DNA from: a virus
Lineage: Duplodnaviria; Heunggongvirae; Uroviricota; Caudoviricetes
Direction: 5' to 3' (one strand)
Length of the DNA: 7,590 nt
IMG/VR virus record: IMGVR_UViG_2609459830_000025
Made by a program: the position numbers and the translations under genes. Below the pieces are notes generated by a model. The model was not told where the DNA came from. It saw only the letters and a list, made by a program, of their open reading frames with translations, and did no database searches. Positions within the stretch are counted from its first letter, which is position 1. Each line of letters begins with the position of its first letter. This document shows, piece after piece, positions 1,391 to 7,590 of the stretch.

Positions 1391-1422
1391 CAGGTCACTA
1401 TCAGTCAAAATAAAATCATTAT
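1391..1422. promoter_or_regulatory. Int arm-type binding sites P'1, P'2, P'3
   Basis: CAGGTCACTATCAGTCAAAATAAAATCATTAT contains three tandem arm-type repeats (AGTCACTAT-like) directly before the int 3' end. Confidence 0.7.
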
Positions 1423-2489
1423 TTGATTTCAATTTTGTCCCACTCCCTGCCTCTGTCATCACGATACTGTGATGCCATGGTGTCCGACTTATGCCCGAGA
1501 AGATGTTGAGCAAACTTATCGCTTATCTGCTTCTCATAGAGTCTTGCAGACAAACTGCGCAACTCGTGAAAGGTAGGCGGATCCCCTTCGAAGGAAAGAC
1601 CTGATGCTTTTCGTGCGCGCATAAAATACCTTGATACTGTGCCGGATGAAAGCGGTTCACGACGAGTAGATGCAATTATGGTTTCTCCGCCAAGAATCTC
1701 TTTGCATTTATCAAGTGTTTCCTTCATTGATATCCCGAGAGCATCAACATGCAATGTTGTAGGGATGGCAATTTTTACGCCTGTTTTGCTTTGTTCGACA
1801 TAAAGATATCCATCTACGATATCAGACCACTTCATTTCGCATAAATCACCAACTCGCTGCCCGGTAACAACAGCCAGTTCCATTGCAAGTCTGAGCCAAC
1901 ATGGTGATGATTCTGCTGCTTGATAAATTTTCAGGTATTCGTCAGCCGTAAGTCTTGATCTCCTTACCTCTGATTTTGCTGCGCGAGTGGCAGCGACCGG
2001 GTTTGTTGTTATATGGCCTTCAGCTATTGCCTCTCGGAATGCATCGCTCAGTGTTGATCTGATTAACTTGGCTGACGCCGCCTTGCCCTCGTCTATGTAT
2101 CCATTGAGCATTGCCGCAATTTCTTTTGTGGTGATGTCTTCAAGTGGAGCATCAGGCAGCCCCCTCCTTATTGCTTTAATTTTGCTCATGTAATTTATGA
2201 GTGTCTTCTGCTTGATTCCTCTGCTGGCGAGGATTTTTTCGTAGCGATCAAGCCATGAATGTAACGTAACAGAATTATCACTGTTGATTCTCGCTGTCAG
2301 AGGCTTGTGTTTGTGTCCTGAAAATAACTCAATATTGGCCTGTATTGCTTCAGTGATTGCTATCCTCCTGTCTCGGCCTAAACCAAACTCTTTACCCGTC
2401 CTTGGGTCCCTGTAGCAGTAATATCCATTGTTTCTTATATAAAGGTTAGGGGGTAAATCCCGGCGCTCATGATTTCGCCTTCTTCCCAT
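1419..2489 (-). CDS. int: Lambda integrase, tyrosine site-specific recombinase
   Basis: 356-aa ORF, near-identical to lambda Int as recalled. Catalytic residues present (HELRSLSARLY with His/Arg, LLGHKSDTMASQYRDD with His and the Tyr nucleophile). Stop codon abuts the P' arm. Confidence 0.97.
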   Translation of the reverse strand: MGRRRNHERRDLPPNLYIRNNGYYCYRDPRTGKEFGLGRDRRIAITEAIQANIELFSGHKHKPLTARINSDNSVTLHSWLDRYEKILASRGIKQKTLINYMSKIKAIRRGLPDAPLEDITTKEIAAMLNGYIDEGKAASAKLIRSTLSDAFREAIAEGHITTNPVAATRAAKSEVRRSRLTADEYLKIYQAAESSPCWLRLAMELAVVTGQRVGDLCEMKWSDIVDGYLYVEQSKTGVKIAIPTTLHVDALGISMKETLDKCKEILGGETIIASTRREPLSSGTVSRYFMRARKASGLSFEGDPPTFHELRSLSARLYEKQISDKFAQHLLGHKSDTMASQYRDDRGREWDKIEIK

Positions 2490-2685
2490 TTCTGATCCTC
2501 TTCAAAAGGCTACCTGTTACTGGTCGATTTAAGTCAACCTTTACCGCTGATTCGTGGAACAGATACTCTCTTCCATCCTTAACCGGAGGAGGGAATATCC
2601 TGCATTCGCGCACCCATCGACGAACTGTTTCAAGGCTTCTTGGGCGTCGCTGGCGTGCGTTCCACTCCTGAAGTGTCAAGTACAT
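2467..2685 (-). CDS. xis: Excisionase
   Basis: 72-aa ORF MYLTLQEWNARQRRPRSLETVRRWVRECRIF..., recognised as lambda Xis. Overlaps the int start by 23 nt as in lambda. Confidence 0.95.
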   Translation of the reverse strand: MYLTLQEWNARQRRPRSLETVRRWVRECRIFPPPVKDGREYLFHESAVKVDLNRPVTGSLLKRIRNGKKAKS

Positions 2686-2711
2686 CGCAAAGTCTCCGCA
2701 ATTACACGCAA
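2670..2711 (-). promoter_or_regulatory. cII-dependent int promoter pI, with cII box TTGC-N6-TTGC
   Basis: On the minus strand TTGCGTGTAATTGCGG (plus coordinates 2698-2711) sits just upstream of and overlapping the xis start, as at lambda pI, whose transcript starts inside xis. Confidence 0.55.
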
Positions 2712-2712
2712 G

Positions 2713-2735
2713 AAAAAGCCGCCATCAGGCGGCTT
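2713..2735 (-). terminator. Predicted intrinsic terminator hairpin overlapping the stop of the 55-codon ORF
   Basis: Minus strand reads AAGCCGCC-TGAT-GGCGGCTT followed by TTTCTTG: a perfect GC-rich 8-bp stem, 4-nt loop and T tract. Confidence 0.5.
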
Positions 2736-2892
2736 GGTGTTCTTTCAGTTCTTCAATTCGAATATTGGTTATGTCTGCATGTGCTATCTGCGCCCATATC
2801 ATCCAGTGGTCATAGCAGTCATTGATGTTCTCTGCTTCGATAACTCTGTTGAATGGTTCTCCATTCCATTCACCTGTGACTCGGAAGTGCAT
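2725..2892 (-). CDS. Small hypothetical protein (lambda orf55-like)
   Basis: 55-codon ORF from ATG at 2892 to TGA at 2725-2727, translating MHFRVTGEWNGEPFNRVIEAENINDCYDHWMIWAQIAHADITNIRIEELKEHQAA. Below the ORF-track length cutoff, found by manual translation. Position after xis matches the small ORF annotated there in lambda. Confidence 0.65.
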   Translation of the reverse strand: MHFRVTGEWNGEPFNRVIEAENINDCYDHWMIWAQIAHADITNIRIEELKEHQAA

Positions 2893-3134
2893 TTATCATC
2901 TCCATAAAACAAACCCCGCCGTAGCGAGTTCAGATAAAAGAAATCCTCGTCAGTGCGAGGATGCTGTTCATTGCTGCTATACACTTTTTTGCTCTCAACG
3001 TAAGCGGTAGCTCATTCTGTTGGGTTGGTGCAGTTGCTTTTAGGAAATGCTATTTACCCCTTAAACGTCGGCTGAAAGAGCTAAAATCCATGCAAAAAAT
3101 TTACGCAATTTTGTGTATTATTGTGCAGTAAGTA

Positions 3135-3737
3135 ATGAGCTATTTTCTGCGCAAAAAATGGATGGTAAATTTGTCCGGGGCAGGAAAAATTTTATGGGCG
3201 CTAAACATGAAAAAAGATTCGTATCCTTATTTGATTTGCATGACAGTTTTAGGCCTGATCTTTATTTTCCTTTTCTTCTGGTGGCGGGCAGATATTTACA
3301 GGGTCACGTTTCTTAATCAGAGTATATCCCACTATTACATTCTGTTTAGCATGGGAATAGCTTTTCTGTTATCTCTGTTTTGGGTTAAGAAGGGGATAGT
3401 AAAACAAAGCGGCTGGAAGAGTCTGTCAGCATACCTTAAGGTTTATGCAGGGATGTGCATATTTGCTGGATTTTTTCTGATTATACCCCTTACAACACTA
3501 ACTTATTTTTTGCCTGGAGAGACATCGTCTTATGTTGCACCGTATCGGTATACTTCCGGTAGTTCAAAAAGTTGTTCTGGAGCTGAGGTGGATGACCCCG
3601 ATCTACATGAGAATATTCGCATTTGCTATCCGTATGGCAATTATGAGTACGATAATATTATCTATGTTGAAAAGAAAATTAATACATTAGGTGCGGTAGT
3701 AACATATGCACAGACCGCGCGTGATGATACTGAATGA
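3135..3737 (+). CDS. Hypothetical membrane protein, 3 predicted transmembrane helices plus a ~75-aa C-terminal soluble domain; cargo gene in the exo-xis region
   Basis: 200-codon ORF on the strand opposite to all flanking phage genes, in an AT-rich segment (about 33% GC in a hand-counted stretch versus about 55% in exo). Hydrophobic stretches YLICMTVLGLIFIFLFFWW, YYILFSMGIAFLLSLFWV and VYAGMCIFAGFFLIIPLTTLTYFL. Start is uncertain: ATG at 3135, 3162 or 3207 (MKKDSYPY...), none with a strong Shine-Dalgarno. Followed by a hairpin terminator. Confidence 0.75.
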   Translation: MSYFLRKKWMVNLSGAGKILWALNMKKDSYPYLICMTVLGLIFIFLFFWWRADIYRVTFLNQSISHYYILFSMGIAFLLSLFWVKKGIVKQSGWKSLSAYLKVYAGMCIFAGFFLIIPLTTLTYFLPGETSSYVAPYRYTSGSSKSCSGAEVDDPDLHENIRICYPYGNYEYDNIIYVEKKINTLGAVVTYAQTARDDTE

Positions 3738-3771
3738 GATAGTATATAGCGGGCAAGTTTTAGTTAATTTA

Positions 3772-3805
3772 TCGAGGTAATATAATTTACCTCGACTCGT
3801 TTATT
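3772..3805 (+). terminator. Predicted intrinsic terminator for the membrane-protein gene
   Basis: TCGAGGTAA-tataat-TTACCTCGA perfect 9-bp inverted repeat, followed by CTCGTTTATTCT (moderately T-rich), 35 nt after the stop codon. Confidence 0.5.
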
Positions 3806-3933
3806 CTGGTATTAATATTTCGCTTTACGATCGATTTTTATCTGATGATATCATGCGGTTTTCATATACTGACTTACTGTCTTTTCTCCGTTAGCGATTT
3901 TCTCCTGCTCAGCGATGATTTTATCTTTGGCTT

Positions 3934-3951
3934 CTAGTTAATTTCGCTCAC
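3934..3951 (-). pseudogene. Remnant of the ea22 start (GTG plus 5 codons, then TAG)
   Basis: Minus strand reads GTG AGC GAA ATT AAC TAG. The GTG overlaps the orf73 stop (GTGA) exactly as I recall for the orf73/ea22 junction in lambda, but the frame stops after 5 codons where the sequence leaves lambda. Confidence 0.4.
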
Positions 3952-4169
3952 TTCGAACCTCTCTGTTTACTGATAAGTTCCAGATCCTCCTGGCAACTTG
4001 CACAAGTCCGACAACCCTGAACGGCCAGGCGTCTTCGCTCATCTATGGGATCGCCACACTCACAACAATGAGTGGCAGATATAGCCTGGTGGTTCAGGCG
4101 GCGCATTTTTATTGCTGTGTTGCGCTGTAATTCTTCAATTTCTGATGCTGAATCAATGATGTCTGCCAT
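3948..4169 (-). CDS. TraR/DksA-family C4 zinc-finger protein (lambda Orf73-like)
   Basis: 73-aa ORF MADIIDSASEIEELQRNTAIKMRRLNHQAISATHCCECGDPIDERRRLAVQGCRTCASCQ... with paired Cys motifs (C-x2-C ... C-x2-C) typical of TraR/DksA zinc fingers. Position in the exo-xis region matches lambda orf73. Confidence 0.85.
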   Translation of the reverse strand: MADIIDSASEIEELQRNTAIKMRRLNHQAISATHCCECGDPIDERRRLAVQGCRTCASCQEDLELISKQRGSK

Positions 4170-4221
4170 CTTCCATTAATCCCTGAATTGTTGGTTAATA
4201 CGCTTGAGGGTGAATGCGAAC

Positions 4222-4245
4222 AATAAAAAAGGAGCCTGTAGCTCC
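4222..4245 (-). terminator. Predicted intrinsic terminator in the leftward operon (possibly lambda tL3)
   Basis: Minus strand reads GGAGC-TACAG-GCTCC followed by TTTTTTATTG, between the orf61-like stop and the orf73 start. Confidence 0.5.
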
Positions 4246-4267
4246 CTGATGATTTTGCTTTTCATGC

Positions 4268-4549
4268 TCACCGTTCCTTAAAGACGCCGTTTAACATGCC
4301 GATCGCCAGGCTTAAATGAGTCGGTGTGAATCCCATCAGCGTTACCGTTTCGCGGTGCTTCTTCAGTACGCTACGGCAAATGTCATCGACGTTTTTATCC
4401 GGAAACTGCTGTCTGGCTTTTTTGATTTCAGAATTAGCCTGACGGGCAATACTGCGAAGGGCGTTTTCTTGCTGAGGTGTCATTGAACAAGTCCCATGTC
4501 GGCAAGCATAAGCACACAGAATATGAAGCCCGCTGCCAGAAAAATGCAT
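4268..4549 (-). CDS. Exo-xis region small protein, orf61-like with altered termini (93 codons from ATG 4549; alternative start at 4483 gives 71 aa)
   Basis: ORF MHFSGSGLHILCAYACRHGTCSMTPQQENALRSIARQANSEIKK... in the orf61 position. An upstream ATG at 4578 in the same frame runs only 9 codons into TGA at 4550-4552. Confidence 0.6.
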   Translation of the reverse strand: MHFSGSGLHILCAYACRHGTCSMTPQQENALRSIARQANSEIKKARQQFPDKNVDDICRSVLKKHRETVTLMGFTPTHLSLAIGMLNGVFKER

Positions 4550-4559
4550 TCAGTGGTTG

Positions 4560-4751
4560 TCATACCAGGTCTCTCTCATCTGCTTCTGCTTTCGCCACCA
4601 TCATTTCCAGCTTTTGCGAAAGGGATGTGGCTAACGTATGAAATTCTTCGTCTGTTTCTACTGGTATTGGCACAAACCTGACTCCAATTTGAGCAAGGCT
4701 ATGTGCCATCTCAATACTCGTTCTTAACTCAACAGGAGATGCTTTGTGCAT
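4560..4751 (-). CDS. Exo-xis region protein Orf63
   Basis: 63-aa ORF. Size, position and overlap with neighbours match lambda orf63. Confidence 0.75.
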   Translation of the reverse strand: MHKASPVELRTSIEMAHSLAQIGVRFVPIPVETDEEFHTLATSLSQKLEMMVAKAEADERDLV

Positions 4752-4906
4752 ATCGCCTCCCGTTTATTATTTATCTCCTCAGCCAGCCGCTGGGCTTTCA
4801 GCGGATTTCGGATAACAGAAAGGCCGGGAAATACCCAGCCTCGCTTCGTAACGGAGTAGACGAAAGTGATCGTGCCTACGCGGATATTATCGTGAGGATG
4901 CTTCAT
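4724..4906 (-). CDS. Exo-xis region protein Orf60a
   Basis: 60-codon ORF from ATG at 4906, overlapping the exo stop (ATGA). The ORF track extends it two codons upstream to ATG at 4912. Confidence 0.7.
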
Positions 4907-5583
4907 CGCCATTGCTCCCCAAATACAAAACCAATTTCAGCCAGTGCCTCGTCCATTTTTTCGATGAACTCCGGCACCATCTCGTCAAAACCCGCCATGT
5001 ACTTTTCATCCCGCTCAACCACGACATAATGCAGGCCTTCACGCTTCATACGCGGGTCATAGTTGGCAAAGTACCAGGCATCTTTTCGCGTCACCCACAT
5101 GCTGTACTGCACCTGGGCCATGTAAGCCGACTTTATGGCCTCGAAACCACCGAGCCTGAACTTCATGAAATCCCGGGAGGTAAACGGGCATTTCAGCTCA
5201 AGGCCGTTGCCGTCACTGCATAAACCATCGGGAGAGCAGGCGGTGCGCATACTTTCGTCGCGATAGATGATCGGGGATTCAGTAACATTCACGCCGGAAG
5301 TGAATTCAAACAGGGTTCTGGCGTCGTTCTCGTACTGTTTTCCCCAGGCCAGCGCCTTAGCATTAACTTCCGGAGCCACACCGGTGCAAACCTCAGCCAG
5401 CAGGGTGTGGAAGTAGGACATTTTCATGTCAGGCCACTTCTTTCCTGAGCGGGGCTTTGCTATCACGTTGTGAACTTCTGAAGCGGTGATGACGCCGAGC
5501 CGTAATTTGTGCCATGCATCATCCCCCTGTTCGACAGCTCTCACGTCGATCCCGGTACGCTGCAGGATAATGTCCGGTGTCAT
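4903..5583 (-). CDS. exo: Lambda exonuclease (Red-alpha)
   Basis: 226-aa [43 protein letters not shown]..., recognised as lambda Exo. Start overlaps the bet stop (ATGA). Confidence 0.97.
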
Positions 5584-6365
5584 GCTGCCACCTTCTGCTC
5601 AGTGGCTTTCTGTTTCAGGAATCCAAGAGCTTTCACTGCTTCGGCCTGTGTCAGTTCTGACGATGCGCGAATGTCGCGGCGAAATATCTGGGAACAGAGC
5701 GGCAATAAGTCGTCATCCCATGTTTTATCCAGGGCGATTAGCAGAGTGTTAATCTCCTGCATGGTTTCATCGTTAACCGGAGTGATGTCGCGTTCCGGCT
5801 GGCGTTCTGCAGTGTATGCAGTATTTTCGACAATGCGCTCGGCTTCATCCTTGTCATAGATACCAGCAAATCCGAAGGCCAGACGGGCACACTGAATCAT
5901 AGCTTTATGCCGTAACATCCGTTTAGGATGCGACTGCCACGGCCCCGTGATTTCTCTGCCTTCGCGGGTTTTGAATGGTTCGCGGCGGCATTCATCCATC
6001 CATTCGGTAACGCAGATCGGATGATTACGGTCCTTGCGGTAAATCCGGCATGTACAGGATTCATTGTCCTGCTCAAAGTCCATGCCATCAAACTGCTGGT
6101 TTTCATTGATGATGCGGGACCAGCCATCAACGCCCACCACCGGAACGATGCCGTTCTGCTTATCAGGGAAGGCGTAAATTTCTTTCGTCCACGGATTAAG
6201 GCCGTACTGGTTGGCGACGATCAACAATGCGATGAACTGCGCATCGCTGGCATCGCCTTTAAATGCCGTCTGGCGAAGAGTGGTGATCAGTTCCTGTGGG
6301 TCGACAGAATCCATGCCGACACGTTCAGCCAGCTTCCCTGCCAGCGTTGCGAGTGCTGTACTCAT
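5580..6365 (-). CDS. bet: Bet single-strand annealing protein (Red-beta)
   Basis: 261-aa [69 protein letters not shown]..., recognised as lambda Bet. Confidence 0.97.
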
Positions 6366-6370
6366 CCGTT

Positions 6371-6667
6371 TTATACCTCTGAATCAATATCAACCTGATG
6401 GTGAGCAATGGTTTCAACCATGTACCGGATGTGTTCTGCCATGCGCTCCTGAAACTCAACATCGTCATCAAACGCACGGGTAATGGCTTTTTTGCTGGCC
6501 CCGTGGCGTTGCAAATGACCGATGCATAGCGATTCAAACAGGTGCTGGGGCAGGCCTTTTTCCATGTCGTCTGCCAGTTCTGCCTCTTTCTCTTCACGGG
6601 CTATCTGCTGGTAGTGACGCGCCCAGCTCTGAGCCTCAAGACGATCCTGAATGTAATAAGCGTTCAT
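6371..6667 (-). CDS. gam: Gam, RecBCD inhibitor (GamS form, 98 aa)
   Basis: 98-aa [51 protein letters not shown]..., recognised as lambda Gam. The upstream GamL initiation codon (6784-6786) is out of frame in this sequence. Confidence 0.93.
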
Positions 6668-6740
6668 GGCCGAACTCCTGAAATAGCTGTGAAAATATCG
6701 CCCGCGAAATGCCGGGCTGATTAGGAAAACAGGAAAGGGG

Positions 6741-6884
6741 TTAGTGAATGCTTTTGCTTGATCTCAGTTTCAGTATTAATATCCATTTTTTATAAGCGTC
6801 GACGGCTTCACGAAACATCTTTTCATCGCCAATAAAAGTGGCGATAGTGAATTTAGTCTGGATAGCCATAAGTGTTTGATCCAT
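6741..6884 (-). CDS. kil: Kil, host cell-division inhibitor (47 aa)
   Basis: [47 protein letters not shown] from ATG at 6884 to TAA at 6741-6743. The ORF track's 89-aa version begins at an upstream in-frame ATG that I take to be an overcall. Confidence 0.85.
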
Positions 6885-7017
6885 TCTTTGGGACTCCTGG
6901 CTGATTAAGTATGTCGATAAGGCGTTTCCATCCGTCACGTAATTTACGGGTGATTCGTTCAAGTAAAGATTCGGAAGGGCAGCCAGCAACAGGCCACCCT
7001 GCAATGGCATATTGCAT
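6853..7017 (-). CDS. cIII: CIII, FtsH inhibitor that stabilises CII (54 aa)
   Basis: [54 protein letters not shown] from ATG at 7017. The ORF track's 78-aa version starts at an upstream in-frame ATG. Confidence 0.9.
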   Translation of the reverse strand: MQYAIAGWPVAGCPSESLLERITRKLRDGWKRLIDILNQPGVPKNGSNTYGYPD

Positions 7018-7089
7018 GGTGTACTCCTTATTTATACATAACGAAAAACGCCTCGAGTGAAGCGTTATTGGTATGCGGTAAAGCCGCAC

Positions 7090-7113
7090 TCAGGCGGCCT
7101 TGATAGTCATATC
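7090..7113 (-). pseudogene. 3' remnant of ea10, truncated by the IS insertion
   Basis: Seven sense codons (DMTIKAA) plus a TGA stop at 7090-7092 lie at the position where lambda ea10 ends. The reading frame upstream of them is replaced by the IS terminus at 7114. Confidence 0.45.

Positions 7114-7590
<477 letters not shown>

Follow-up and report, generated by a model that had tools for sequence, protein, structure and literature searches.

The small membrane-anchored proteins Sp and Imm of phage T4 act at the periplasm or inner membrane and stop the genome entry of superinfecting phages, and SieB of phage P22 acts by abortive infection and has no periplasmic barrel. A further P22 protein, SieA (162/164 amino acids (aa), three transmembrane (TM) helices), resides in the inner membrane and alone blocks DNA injection, interfering with the ejection-protein conduit (PMC10883804). 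The account of Cumby et al. 2012 given in PMC6832061 describes HK97 gp15 as a small membrane protein, encoded by a moron in a lambdoid phage, which prevents DNA from entering. DNA entry by phages 434 and lambda needs the inner-membrane ManYZ, and the cryptic-prophage protein DicB can block that step and also affects sugar transport (PMC6832061). In P2, the interval between gpQ and gpA is a cos-proximal hotspot that holds old and tin, and this hotspot has been established experimentally as a reservoir of anti-phage systems (PMC9122126). Here we describe a gene for a 176-aa membrane protein carried by a cassette in a lambda-like prophage, within a window of 7,590 nucleotides (nt), the whole stretch of DNA that was analysed, from the Caudoviricetes record IMGVR_UViG_2609459830_000025.

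The interval is a self-contained, mobile accessory module (moron) of approximately 0.9 kb with one gene antisense to the leftward early (pL) operon. BLASTN against lambda (NC_001416) aligned window 1900-2962 with lambda 28293-29355 at 97.2% identity and window 3936-5100 with lambda 30380-31545 at 96.9%, and it follows from these two flank alignments that 1,024 bp of lambda (29356-30379), with the genes ea8.5 (29374-29655) and ea22 (29847-30395), has been swapped for 973 unrelated bp at window 2963-3935. A first-pass annotation of this DNA had proposed such a replacement of the ea8.5-ea22 slot at 2963-3937, between lambda-like flanks (int, xis and orf55 on the left, orf73 to exo on the right), and the alignment bears this out: the flanks are as claimed and the interval is not collinear with ea8.5/ea22. 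The cassette is also AT-rich as described, at 37.9% GC, the prophage flanks having 45.0% (left) and 49.7% (right). The moron layout that had been read into the interval holds as well, in that promoter region, gene and terminator travel as a unit: window 3070-3844, which spans all three, is 76% identical in DNA to the copy at an E. coli P2-type locus described below. The slot was said to be variable among lambdoid phages, and we found this to be so. Between orf55 and orf73 lambda has ea8.5 and ea22, ev099 has an LprI-family gene and an ea22-like gene, PhiR70_1 is empty and the 434 type has the cassette; the otherwise collinear lambda, ev099, PhiR70_1, 434 and 2B8 differ only in this slot. The ev099 gene in place of ea8.5, annotated 'lysozyme inhibitor LprI family' (1030-1728 of that locus, minus strand), is other envelope-directed cargo at this position. 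The features of the cassette and its left edge are as follows.

Positions 2943-2962, minus strand: hairpin and T-tract at the left breakpoint, common to lambda (-10.4 kcal/mol, z = -2.1).
Positions 2963-3935, no strand assigned: cassette replacing lambda ea8.5 and ea22, 973 bp, 99.8% identical to phage 434.
Positions 3112-3125, plus strand: TTGT-N6-TTGT direct repeat, a CII-consensus site according to the 434 record.
Positions 3135-3206, plus strand: 24-codon 'N-terminal extension' of a 200-aa open reading frame (ORF), which holds the putative promoter and 5' untranslated region.
Positions 3163-3171, plus strand: extended -10-like element TGgTAAATT, TGGTAAATT, recognised by its conservation across alleles.
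Positions 3207-3737, plus strand: gene for the 176-aa membrane protein, stop codon at 3735-3737, defined by homologue starts and a ratio of nonsynonymous to synonymous substitution rates (dN/dS) of 0.08-0.15.
Positions 3772-3795, plus strand: intrinsic-terminator-like hairpin, then CTCGTTTATT (-12.9 kcal/mol, z = -3.45).

The first-pass annotation had placed a membrane-protein gene on the strand opposite to the phage genes, and its strand, its ORF (3135-3737) and its terminator are confirmed, but its start codon lies 72 nt too far upstream. Homologues in other genera are 169-180 aa long and colinear, and all of them start at the residue aligned to Met25 of the 200-aa ORF (MKKxSYPxL); moreover, the 72 nt before the ATG at 3207 hold in-frame stops in the E. 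coli P2-type, both Salmonella, the E. hormaechei, the K. michiganensis and the Cedecea alleles. The 200-aa reading was rejected on the in-frame stops that the extension carries in all 6 other alleles examined, and the true gene is therefore 3207-3737, a model that RefSeq already uses in one strain. Public gene models for this locus are inconsistent (200, 188, 176 and 112 aa, plus fragments), and in the RefSeq record for phage 2B8 the intact gene is annotated as two small ORFs (2259-2838 of that locus). The gene is real, and purifying selection on it is strong: pairwise comparisons at saturated dS give a dN/dS of 0.08-0.15, with values of 0.076-0.083 for the C-terminal domain and 0.12-0.21 for the TM part.

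The 5' region and the -10 element are conserved across alleles that have nothing else in common. The pattern TGnTAAnTT is kept 35-40 nt before the ATG in the window and in the E. coli P2-type, Salmonella (two alleles), E. hormaechei and Cedecea copies, with TACAAT in Klebsiella, and a putative transcription start site would lie near 3178. The terminator falls inside the stretch that aligns with the E. coli P2-type copy.

The TTGT repeat is also found upstream of the gene in two Salmonella P2-type copies (L005 and L006, approximately 5905-5925), with three ATTGTGCA in L006, and may be a binding site for a host regulator. We considered a CII-dependent promoter and decided against it: P2-type copies keep the repeat but lack CII, one Salmonella allele has it with the spacing disrupted, and a -10 at a suitable distance is missing. 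We also considered a 56-aa ORF at 2961-3131 (plus strand), called a 'putative membrane protein' in 434. It is doubtful, as it starts inside the hairpin at 2943-2962, which corresponds to the terminator t-L4 of the leftward transcript annotated in the 434 record M60848, and lies mostly outside the conserved module, homology of the window to P2-type copies starting only at 3039-3070; it is probably not a gene.

The encoded protein is predicted with high confidence to consist of three TM helices followed by a 74-residue five-stranded beta-barrel. The full AlphaFold2 model has helices at residues 5-29, 38-61 and 70-101 and then a beta domain at 105-171 (predicted local distance difference test score, pLDDT, 86), and the C-terminal domain modelled alone is a five-stranded barrel (pLDDT 90). 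Mapped to the window, the parts of the protein are as follows.

Positions 3228-3284, plus strand: TM helix 1, residues 8-26.
Positions 3333-3386, plus strand: TM helix 2, residues 43-60.
Positions 3387-3440, plus strand: Lys-rich loop 2, residues 61-78, predicted to be cytoplasmic (family mean net charge +3.6).
Positions 3441-3512, plus strand: TM helix 3, residues 79-102.
Positions 3513-3734, plus strand: C-terminal five-stranded beta-barrel domain, residues 103-176, predicted to be periplasmic and the most conserved part.

Across 21 family members the three hydrophobic segments are uncharged, loop 2 carries its net +3.6 and the C-terminal domain is net acidic, from which, by the positive-inside rule, we infer an N-in/C-out topology with the barrel in the periplasm. 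Two cysteines, Cys123 (3573-3575) and Cys140 (3624-3626), are invariant within the motif CSGAxVxxPxL...IxICxPxGxY, as are Gly/Pro positions, and the Cys pair is kept even in the most distant members of the family. The barrel is probably stabilised by a disulfide between these two cysteines.

Family and structure searches showed that this is not a well-characterised gene, and the earlier statement that its function is undescribed stands: the family searches gave no match and the accessions are absent from the literature searched. Pfam gave no match at E <= 1 except a sub-threshold DUF6057, NCBIfam had no significant match, and the sequence search of the PDB returned none below E = 0.4. The function-less family PHROG 1416 matches at E = 2e-50, with a 90-position profile that spans only residues 113-200 of the 200-aa ORF, probably because that family was built from truncated gene calls such as the one in the 2B8 RefSeq record. 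There are weak fold matches to membrane-associated and NfeD-like barrels. An exhaustive hidden Markov model (HMM) search of 1.8 billion cluster representatives recovered a family of only 62 members, nearly all of approximately 170 aa. The named homologues and the reference-genome census are Enterobacteriaceae, bar one contig that is probably mis-binned: the 3.5-kb JARKOR010000073.1, assigned to a 'Candidatus Nanosynbacter' bin, has a 98% identical copy of the cassette gene and is almost certainly an E. coli prophage fragment. Two giant proteins (P0124 and P0131) that repeatedly matched the C-terminal motif gave sub-threshold Pfam matches only and were dropped as uninformative.

Among the described systems, the closest working analogue of the cassette protein is P22 SieA, the product of one prophage gene that has a promoter of its own and runs counter to its neighbours; size, number of TM helices and moron layout match. 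SieA differs in having no beta domain and in its conserved motif FxRYPxEAxxFNK, which is cytoplasmic and absent from the cassette protein; the conserved part of the latter is the predicted periplasmic beta-barrel with its Cys pair. An hhalign comparison of the two gave a probability of 0.1%, that is, no homology. The P22 sieB gene is also antisense within the leftward early operon, has its own promoter and is prophage-expressed according to the P22 annotation, and hhalign against SieB again found no homology (probability 0.3%). HK97 gp15, at 62 aa vs 176 aa here, is encoded in the tail gene cluster on the same strand, and shows no homology by hhalign (probability 0.9%). T4 Sp and Imm are much smaller and come from a virulent phage; they are set apart by description, and PHROGs with such annotation were not matched. 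Short NfeD-type proteins are built alike, with a few TM helices at the N-terminus and then a small five-stranded barrel of the oligonucleotide/oligosaccharide-binding (OB) type. The NfeD barrel is cytoplasmic, whereas for the cassette protein a periplasmic barrel with a disulfide is predicted; no Pfam match to NfeD (PF01957) was seen at E <= 1, and an SPFH/stomatin neighbour was found in none of the contexts examined. With the P2 cargo genes old and tin the likeness is one of place, as relatives of the cassette gene occupy exactly that hotspot, and the difference is that the window copy sits in the lambdoid exo-xis slot.

In P2-like prophages, five lineages of relatives at 55-78% identity are found between the genes for the portal protein gpQ and the replication protein gpA, in the orientation opposite to that of gpA. 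They come from four genera: E. coli, Salmonella (two alleles), E. hormaechei and K. michiganensis. About 113 complete genomes have the E. coli P2-type allele at >= 95% identity. The neighbours within the hotspot vary, being small ORFs, YafO, ParM/StbB or a pair with an AAA_16 ATPase, and the gene therefore acts alone. P2 elements with only unknown genes at the main defence loci make up 19%, and at the equivalent hotspot of P4 six of eight unknowns picked at random proved to be defensive (PMC13586616). A term search of the supplementary tables of Rousset et al. (PMC9122126) that are available as text did not find the protein.

Several variants of these loci were seen. A 5'-truncated E. coli P2-type form is widespread (more than 1,000 contigs, P0132/P0134); it is read as 112 aa from an internal GTG and is without TM1-TM2. 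One further locus (L042, 4998-5180) has only the last ~60 codons, beside an Ea22 fragment and ParM/StbB. In Salmonella P2-like hotspots two small same-strand ORFs often precede the gene (L005, L008, L013 and L014, approximately 5100-5890); they encode 81 or 123 aa and then 119 aa, have no Pfam match, are absent or incomplete in L006, L007 and L015, and could be separate cargo. In the K. michiganensis hotspot (L037-L039, 2281-5623, minus strand) the gene adjoins a 790-aa AAA_16 ATPase and a 279-aa protein, a pair that looks like an uncharacterised two-gene defence candidate.

Both the P2-type copy and the cassette carry traces of an ea22-type gene. At the P2-type locus, just past the end of the alignment and on the opposite strand, lies a frameshifted fragment of an ead/Ea22-like (lambdoid) gene, so that the module and an ea22-type gene were once convergent neighbours in a lambdoid phage. 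Part of this fragment matches window 3894-3937 at 77% identity, and these window positions encode, out of frame, LEAKDKIIAEQEKIA..., which is like the coiled-coil segment of the fragment. No intact ea22 ORF of the Ead/Ea22-like family is present in the slot of the window, which holds only a stub, as the first-pass annotation had said of the right edge, and a 28-codon remnant out of frame.

Positions 3851-3937, minus strand: out-of-frame remnant of an Ea22-like coiled-coil segment, LEAKDKIIAEQEKIANGEKTVSQYMKTA and then a stop, recognised by similarity to the P2-type Ea22-like pseudogene.
Positions 3934-3951, minus strand: lambda-type ea22 start, GTG (3951-3949) and four more codons (VSEIN), then TAG (3936-3934).

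The sequence comparison indicates that the module moved, flank included, from a lambdoid phage into the P2 hotspot, and that in the 434-type cassette ea22 has since been reduced to the 5-codon stub and the remnant. The two copies differ at 24% of nucleotides, and the exchange is therefore old.

The cassette is not rare or novel. It is the allele of the classical phage 434: the cassette interval is 99% identical in 2B8 and 98% in mEp332, next to the 99.8% in 434 given above, and GenBank M60848 (434) already lists a partial 'ORF-22+' within it. The gene is annotated as 'hypothetical', or as 'putative membrane protein' in the current 434 record. The cassette is present in 916 of 5,426 complete E. 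coli genomes (17%), as a single copy in each and always on the chromosome. O157:H7 strains have it at 100% identity, the counterparts being ECs_0804 in 'prophage Sp3, lambda-like phage' of Sakai and WP_000120056.1 in TW14359, with CPT_434_36 in phage 434, and other strains have it at the same position in att-lambda prophages. Prophages in which int, bet or exo have already decayed to pseudogenes still keep the gene intact: in O157:H7 Sp3 there is no change in the cassette although int and bet are pseudogenes, and in the YY76-1 prophage remnant it is intact among neighbouring pseudogenes. Taken conservatively, then, the cassette is a known sequence and is classed as a prophage moron encoding a small envelope protein.

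As to what the protein does, we favour, at something short of an even chance, a candidate role in lysogen-expressed superinfection exclusion at the level of the envelope. The gene would be transcribed from its own promoter in the lysogen, with convergent pL transcription opposing it during lytic growth. The protein would sit in the inner membrane, where its periplasmic barrel could interfere with the genome entry of superinfecting phages, and the block might fall either at the inner-membrane entry port or at the trans-periplasmic ejection conduit of the phage. This would be single-protein superinfection exclusion, SieA-like in action and unrelated to SieA. In favour of this reading we count the make-up of the module as a unit, the siting of five lineages of relatives in the P2 hotspot and the high share of defensive genes among the P4 unknowns, the retention in decayed prophages, the constraint on the protein and its predicted structure, and the precedents of SieA, sieB and DicB with ManYZ. 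In a fuller form, which we hold more tentatively still, the protein would be the founding member of a new single-protein envelope-level exclusion family, in which three TM helices are combined with a periplasmic OB-like barrel locked by a disulfide, and which is not related to SieA, SieB, Imm, Sp, Cor and gp15; it would have been recruited from a chromosomal Enterobacteriaceae envelope gene into a promoter-gene-terminator module that shuttles between the lambdoid exo-xis slot and the P2 gpQ-gpA hotspot, and it would protect approximately one sixth of sequenced E. coli, O157:H7 included.

Several results weigh against a role in exclusion. The searches made found no sequence or fold relation to known exclusion or defence proteins: the PADLOC-DB v2 defence HMMs gave 0 families at E <= 1, and Foldseek with the full model against viral structures and the PDB gave none at E <= 1e-3. 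The literature searched by phage name, locus tags and accessions held no functional study of the cassette protein. The very low dN/dS is unlike that of proteins in an arms race with fast-evolving phage parts. The consensus promoter scan did not call the -10 element, the -35 is weak, and the putative promoter was recognised by conservation. The P2 hotspot itself also carries non-defence cargo, namely ParM/StbB and the YafO toxin. Finally, the family has chromosomal members. Copies at 36-45% identity occur in six Enterobacter species in a stable synteny of LysR, the gene, GGDEF and an AI-2E transporter, and further copies occupy differing non-phage chromosomal sites in Klebsiella and Cedecea; no phage or defence genes were seen near the Enterobacter, Klebsiella and Cedecea chromosomal copies examined. 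This chromosomal lineage is the chief argument against a purely anti-phage role and suggests that the family has, or began with, a cellular envelope function.

The same chromosomal copies speak for reading the gene as a lysogenic-conversion or host-fitness factor. Its product would modulate some conserved part of the envelope, be it a transporter, a signalling protein or the cell-wall machinery, and phages would carry the gene for its benefit to the lysogen, for example in stress tolerance or colonisation. We consider this unlikely, and it is nonetheless the best placed of the alternatives to exclusion. The six Enterobacter orthologues are vertically inherited and syntenic beside LysR and GGDEF genes, Klebsiella and Cedecea have their chromosomal copies, the strong purifying selection, with the periplasm-facing part most conserved, suggests that a partner in the host is conserved too, and cryptic prophages have kept the gene. 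However, the phage-borne clade is concentrated in a validated defence hotspot (PMC9122126), and the chromosomal contexts show no conserved partner gene. The two readings can also coincide, in that a block at an entry port serves both, as with DicB and ManYZ (PMC6832061), a precedent by which one mechanism could reconcile defence and host-physiology roles.

We regard as improbable an abortive-infection effector that would sense an infection cue, permeabilise or depolarise the inner membrane and kill the cell before the phage has finished, in the manner of RexB but within one protein. A small multi-pass membrane protein at defence hotspots would fit such an effector, and TM proteins of defence systems are commonly viewed as suicide effectors (PMC9122126), but the gene is solitary or has varying neighbours and shows no sensor partner, and its conserved part is a predicted periplasmic barrel and not a pore-like helix bundle. 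An apparently constitutive putative promoter, stable chromosomal orthologues and presence in 17% of E. coli genomes also disfavour a latent toxin.

The chance is slim that the protein is an orphan immunity protein against a membrane- or periplasm-acting bacterial toxin, such as a pore-forming colicin or an effector of a type VI secretion system or of contact-dependent inhibition, carried as protective prophage cargo. Pore-forming-colicin immunity proteins are of similar size and have a three-TM inner-membrane architecture, which the cassette protein resembles in both respects, and a periplasmic disulfide domain, as predicted here, would suit toxin binding. Against this, a toxin gene is adjacent in none of the contexts examined, and the Pfam and NCBIfam searches brought up no family.

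Slimmer still is the chance that the gene regulates the lysis-lysogeny decision, the induction or the lysis timing of the phage that carries it. Genes of the exo-xis region, where it lies, influence lysogenisation and induction (PMC3824215, PMC7093339), and the TTGT-N6-TTGT repeat fits the CII-site consensus as annotated in 434. Against this, the gene is antisense to the early operon, P2-like phages with another regulatory circuit and no CII carry this module too, the gene is kept in prophages no longer able to develop, and chromosomal orthologues exist. That the ORF arose by chance in AT-rich filler DNA, for which one could cite only the disagreeing annotated starts (200, 188 and 176 aa) and the split RefSeq record, is refuted by dN/dS at saturated dS, colinear homologues across genera, a confident structure prediction and the invariant Cys and Gly/Pro positions.

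Around the cassette, the window is a lambda-like prophage sitting at att-lambda. The lambda att core GCTTTTTTATACTAA (15 bp, exact) at 1331-1345 forms the host/prophage junction 47 bp off ybhC, and phage homology (2B8, 434) begins exactly at window 1331.

Positions 1-1284, no strand assigned: host gene ybhC.
Positions 1419-2489, minus strand: int.
Positions 2467-2685, minus strand: xis.
Positions 2725-2892, minus strand: orf55.
Positions 3948-4169, minus strand: TraR/orf73-like zinc-finger gene.

To the right of the last of these follow orf61/63/60a, exo, bet and gam. Between xis and orf55, phage 434 has an extra ~420 bp (1833-2254 of its locus, L002) with ORF114, of 114 aa; this insert is missing from the window (approximately 2713-2733), lambda and 2B8, and is a second small presence/absence polymorphism by the cassette. 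Rfam has one match in the window, Lambda_thermo (the cIII thermoregulator RNA element), at 6972-7030 on the minus strand with 84 bits. The kil/cIII region is followed at once, at 7156-7584 (minus strand), by the C-terminal part of a transposase of the IS3 family (IS1203/IS629-like), and the early-left operon therefore seems cut off from pL/N by an IS; among complete E. coli genomes, window 6000-7590 is not matched in one piece.

A gene of the classical model phage 434 that is present in 17% of complete E. coli genomes and in O157:H7 Sp3 has remained without a name, a family or a paper, and what is new here is a corrected gene model and a confident architecture for its product. The shared module and the Ea22 footprint give concrete evidence of one pool of cargo that serves both the lambdoid exo-xis slot and the P2 defence hotspot, which would extend 'hotspot' thinking to the lambdoid phages. 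Should the protein act in exclusion, this would bear on host-range prediction and on phage therapy aimed at E. coli and Salmonella. Should it not, then the Enterobacter orthologues, with their conserved synteny, point towards an envelope function that has been borrowed by phages.

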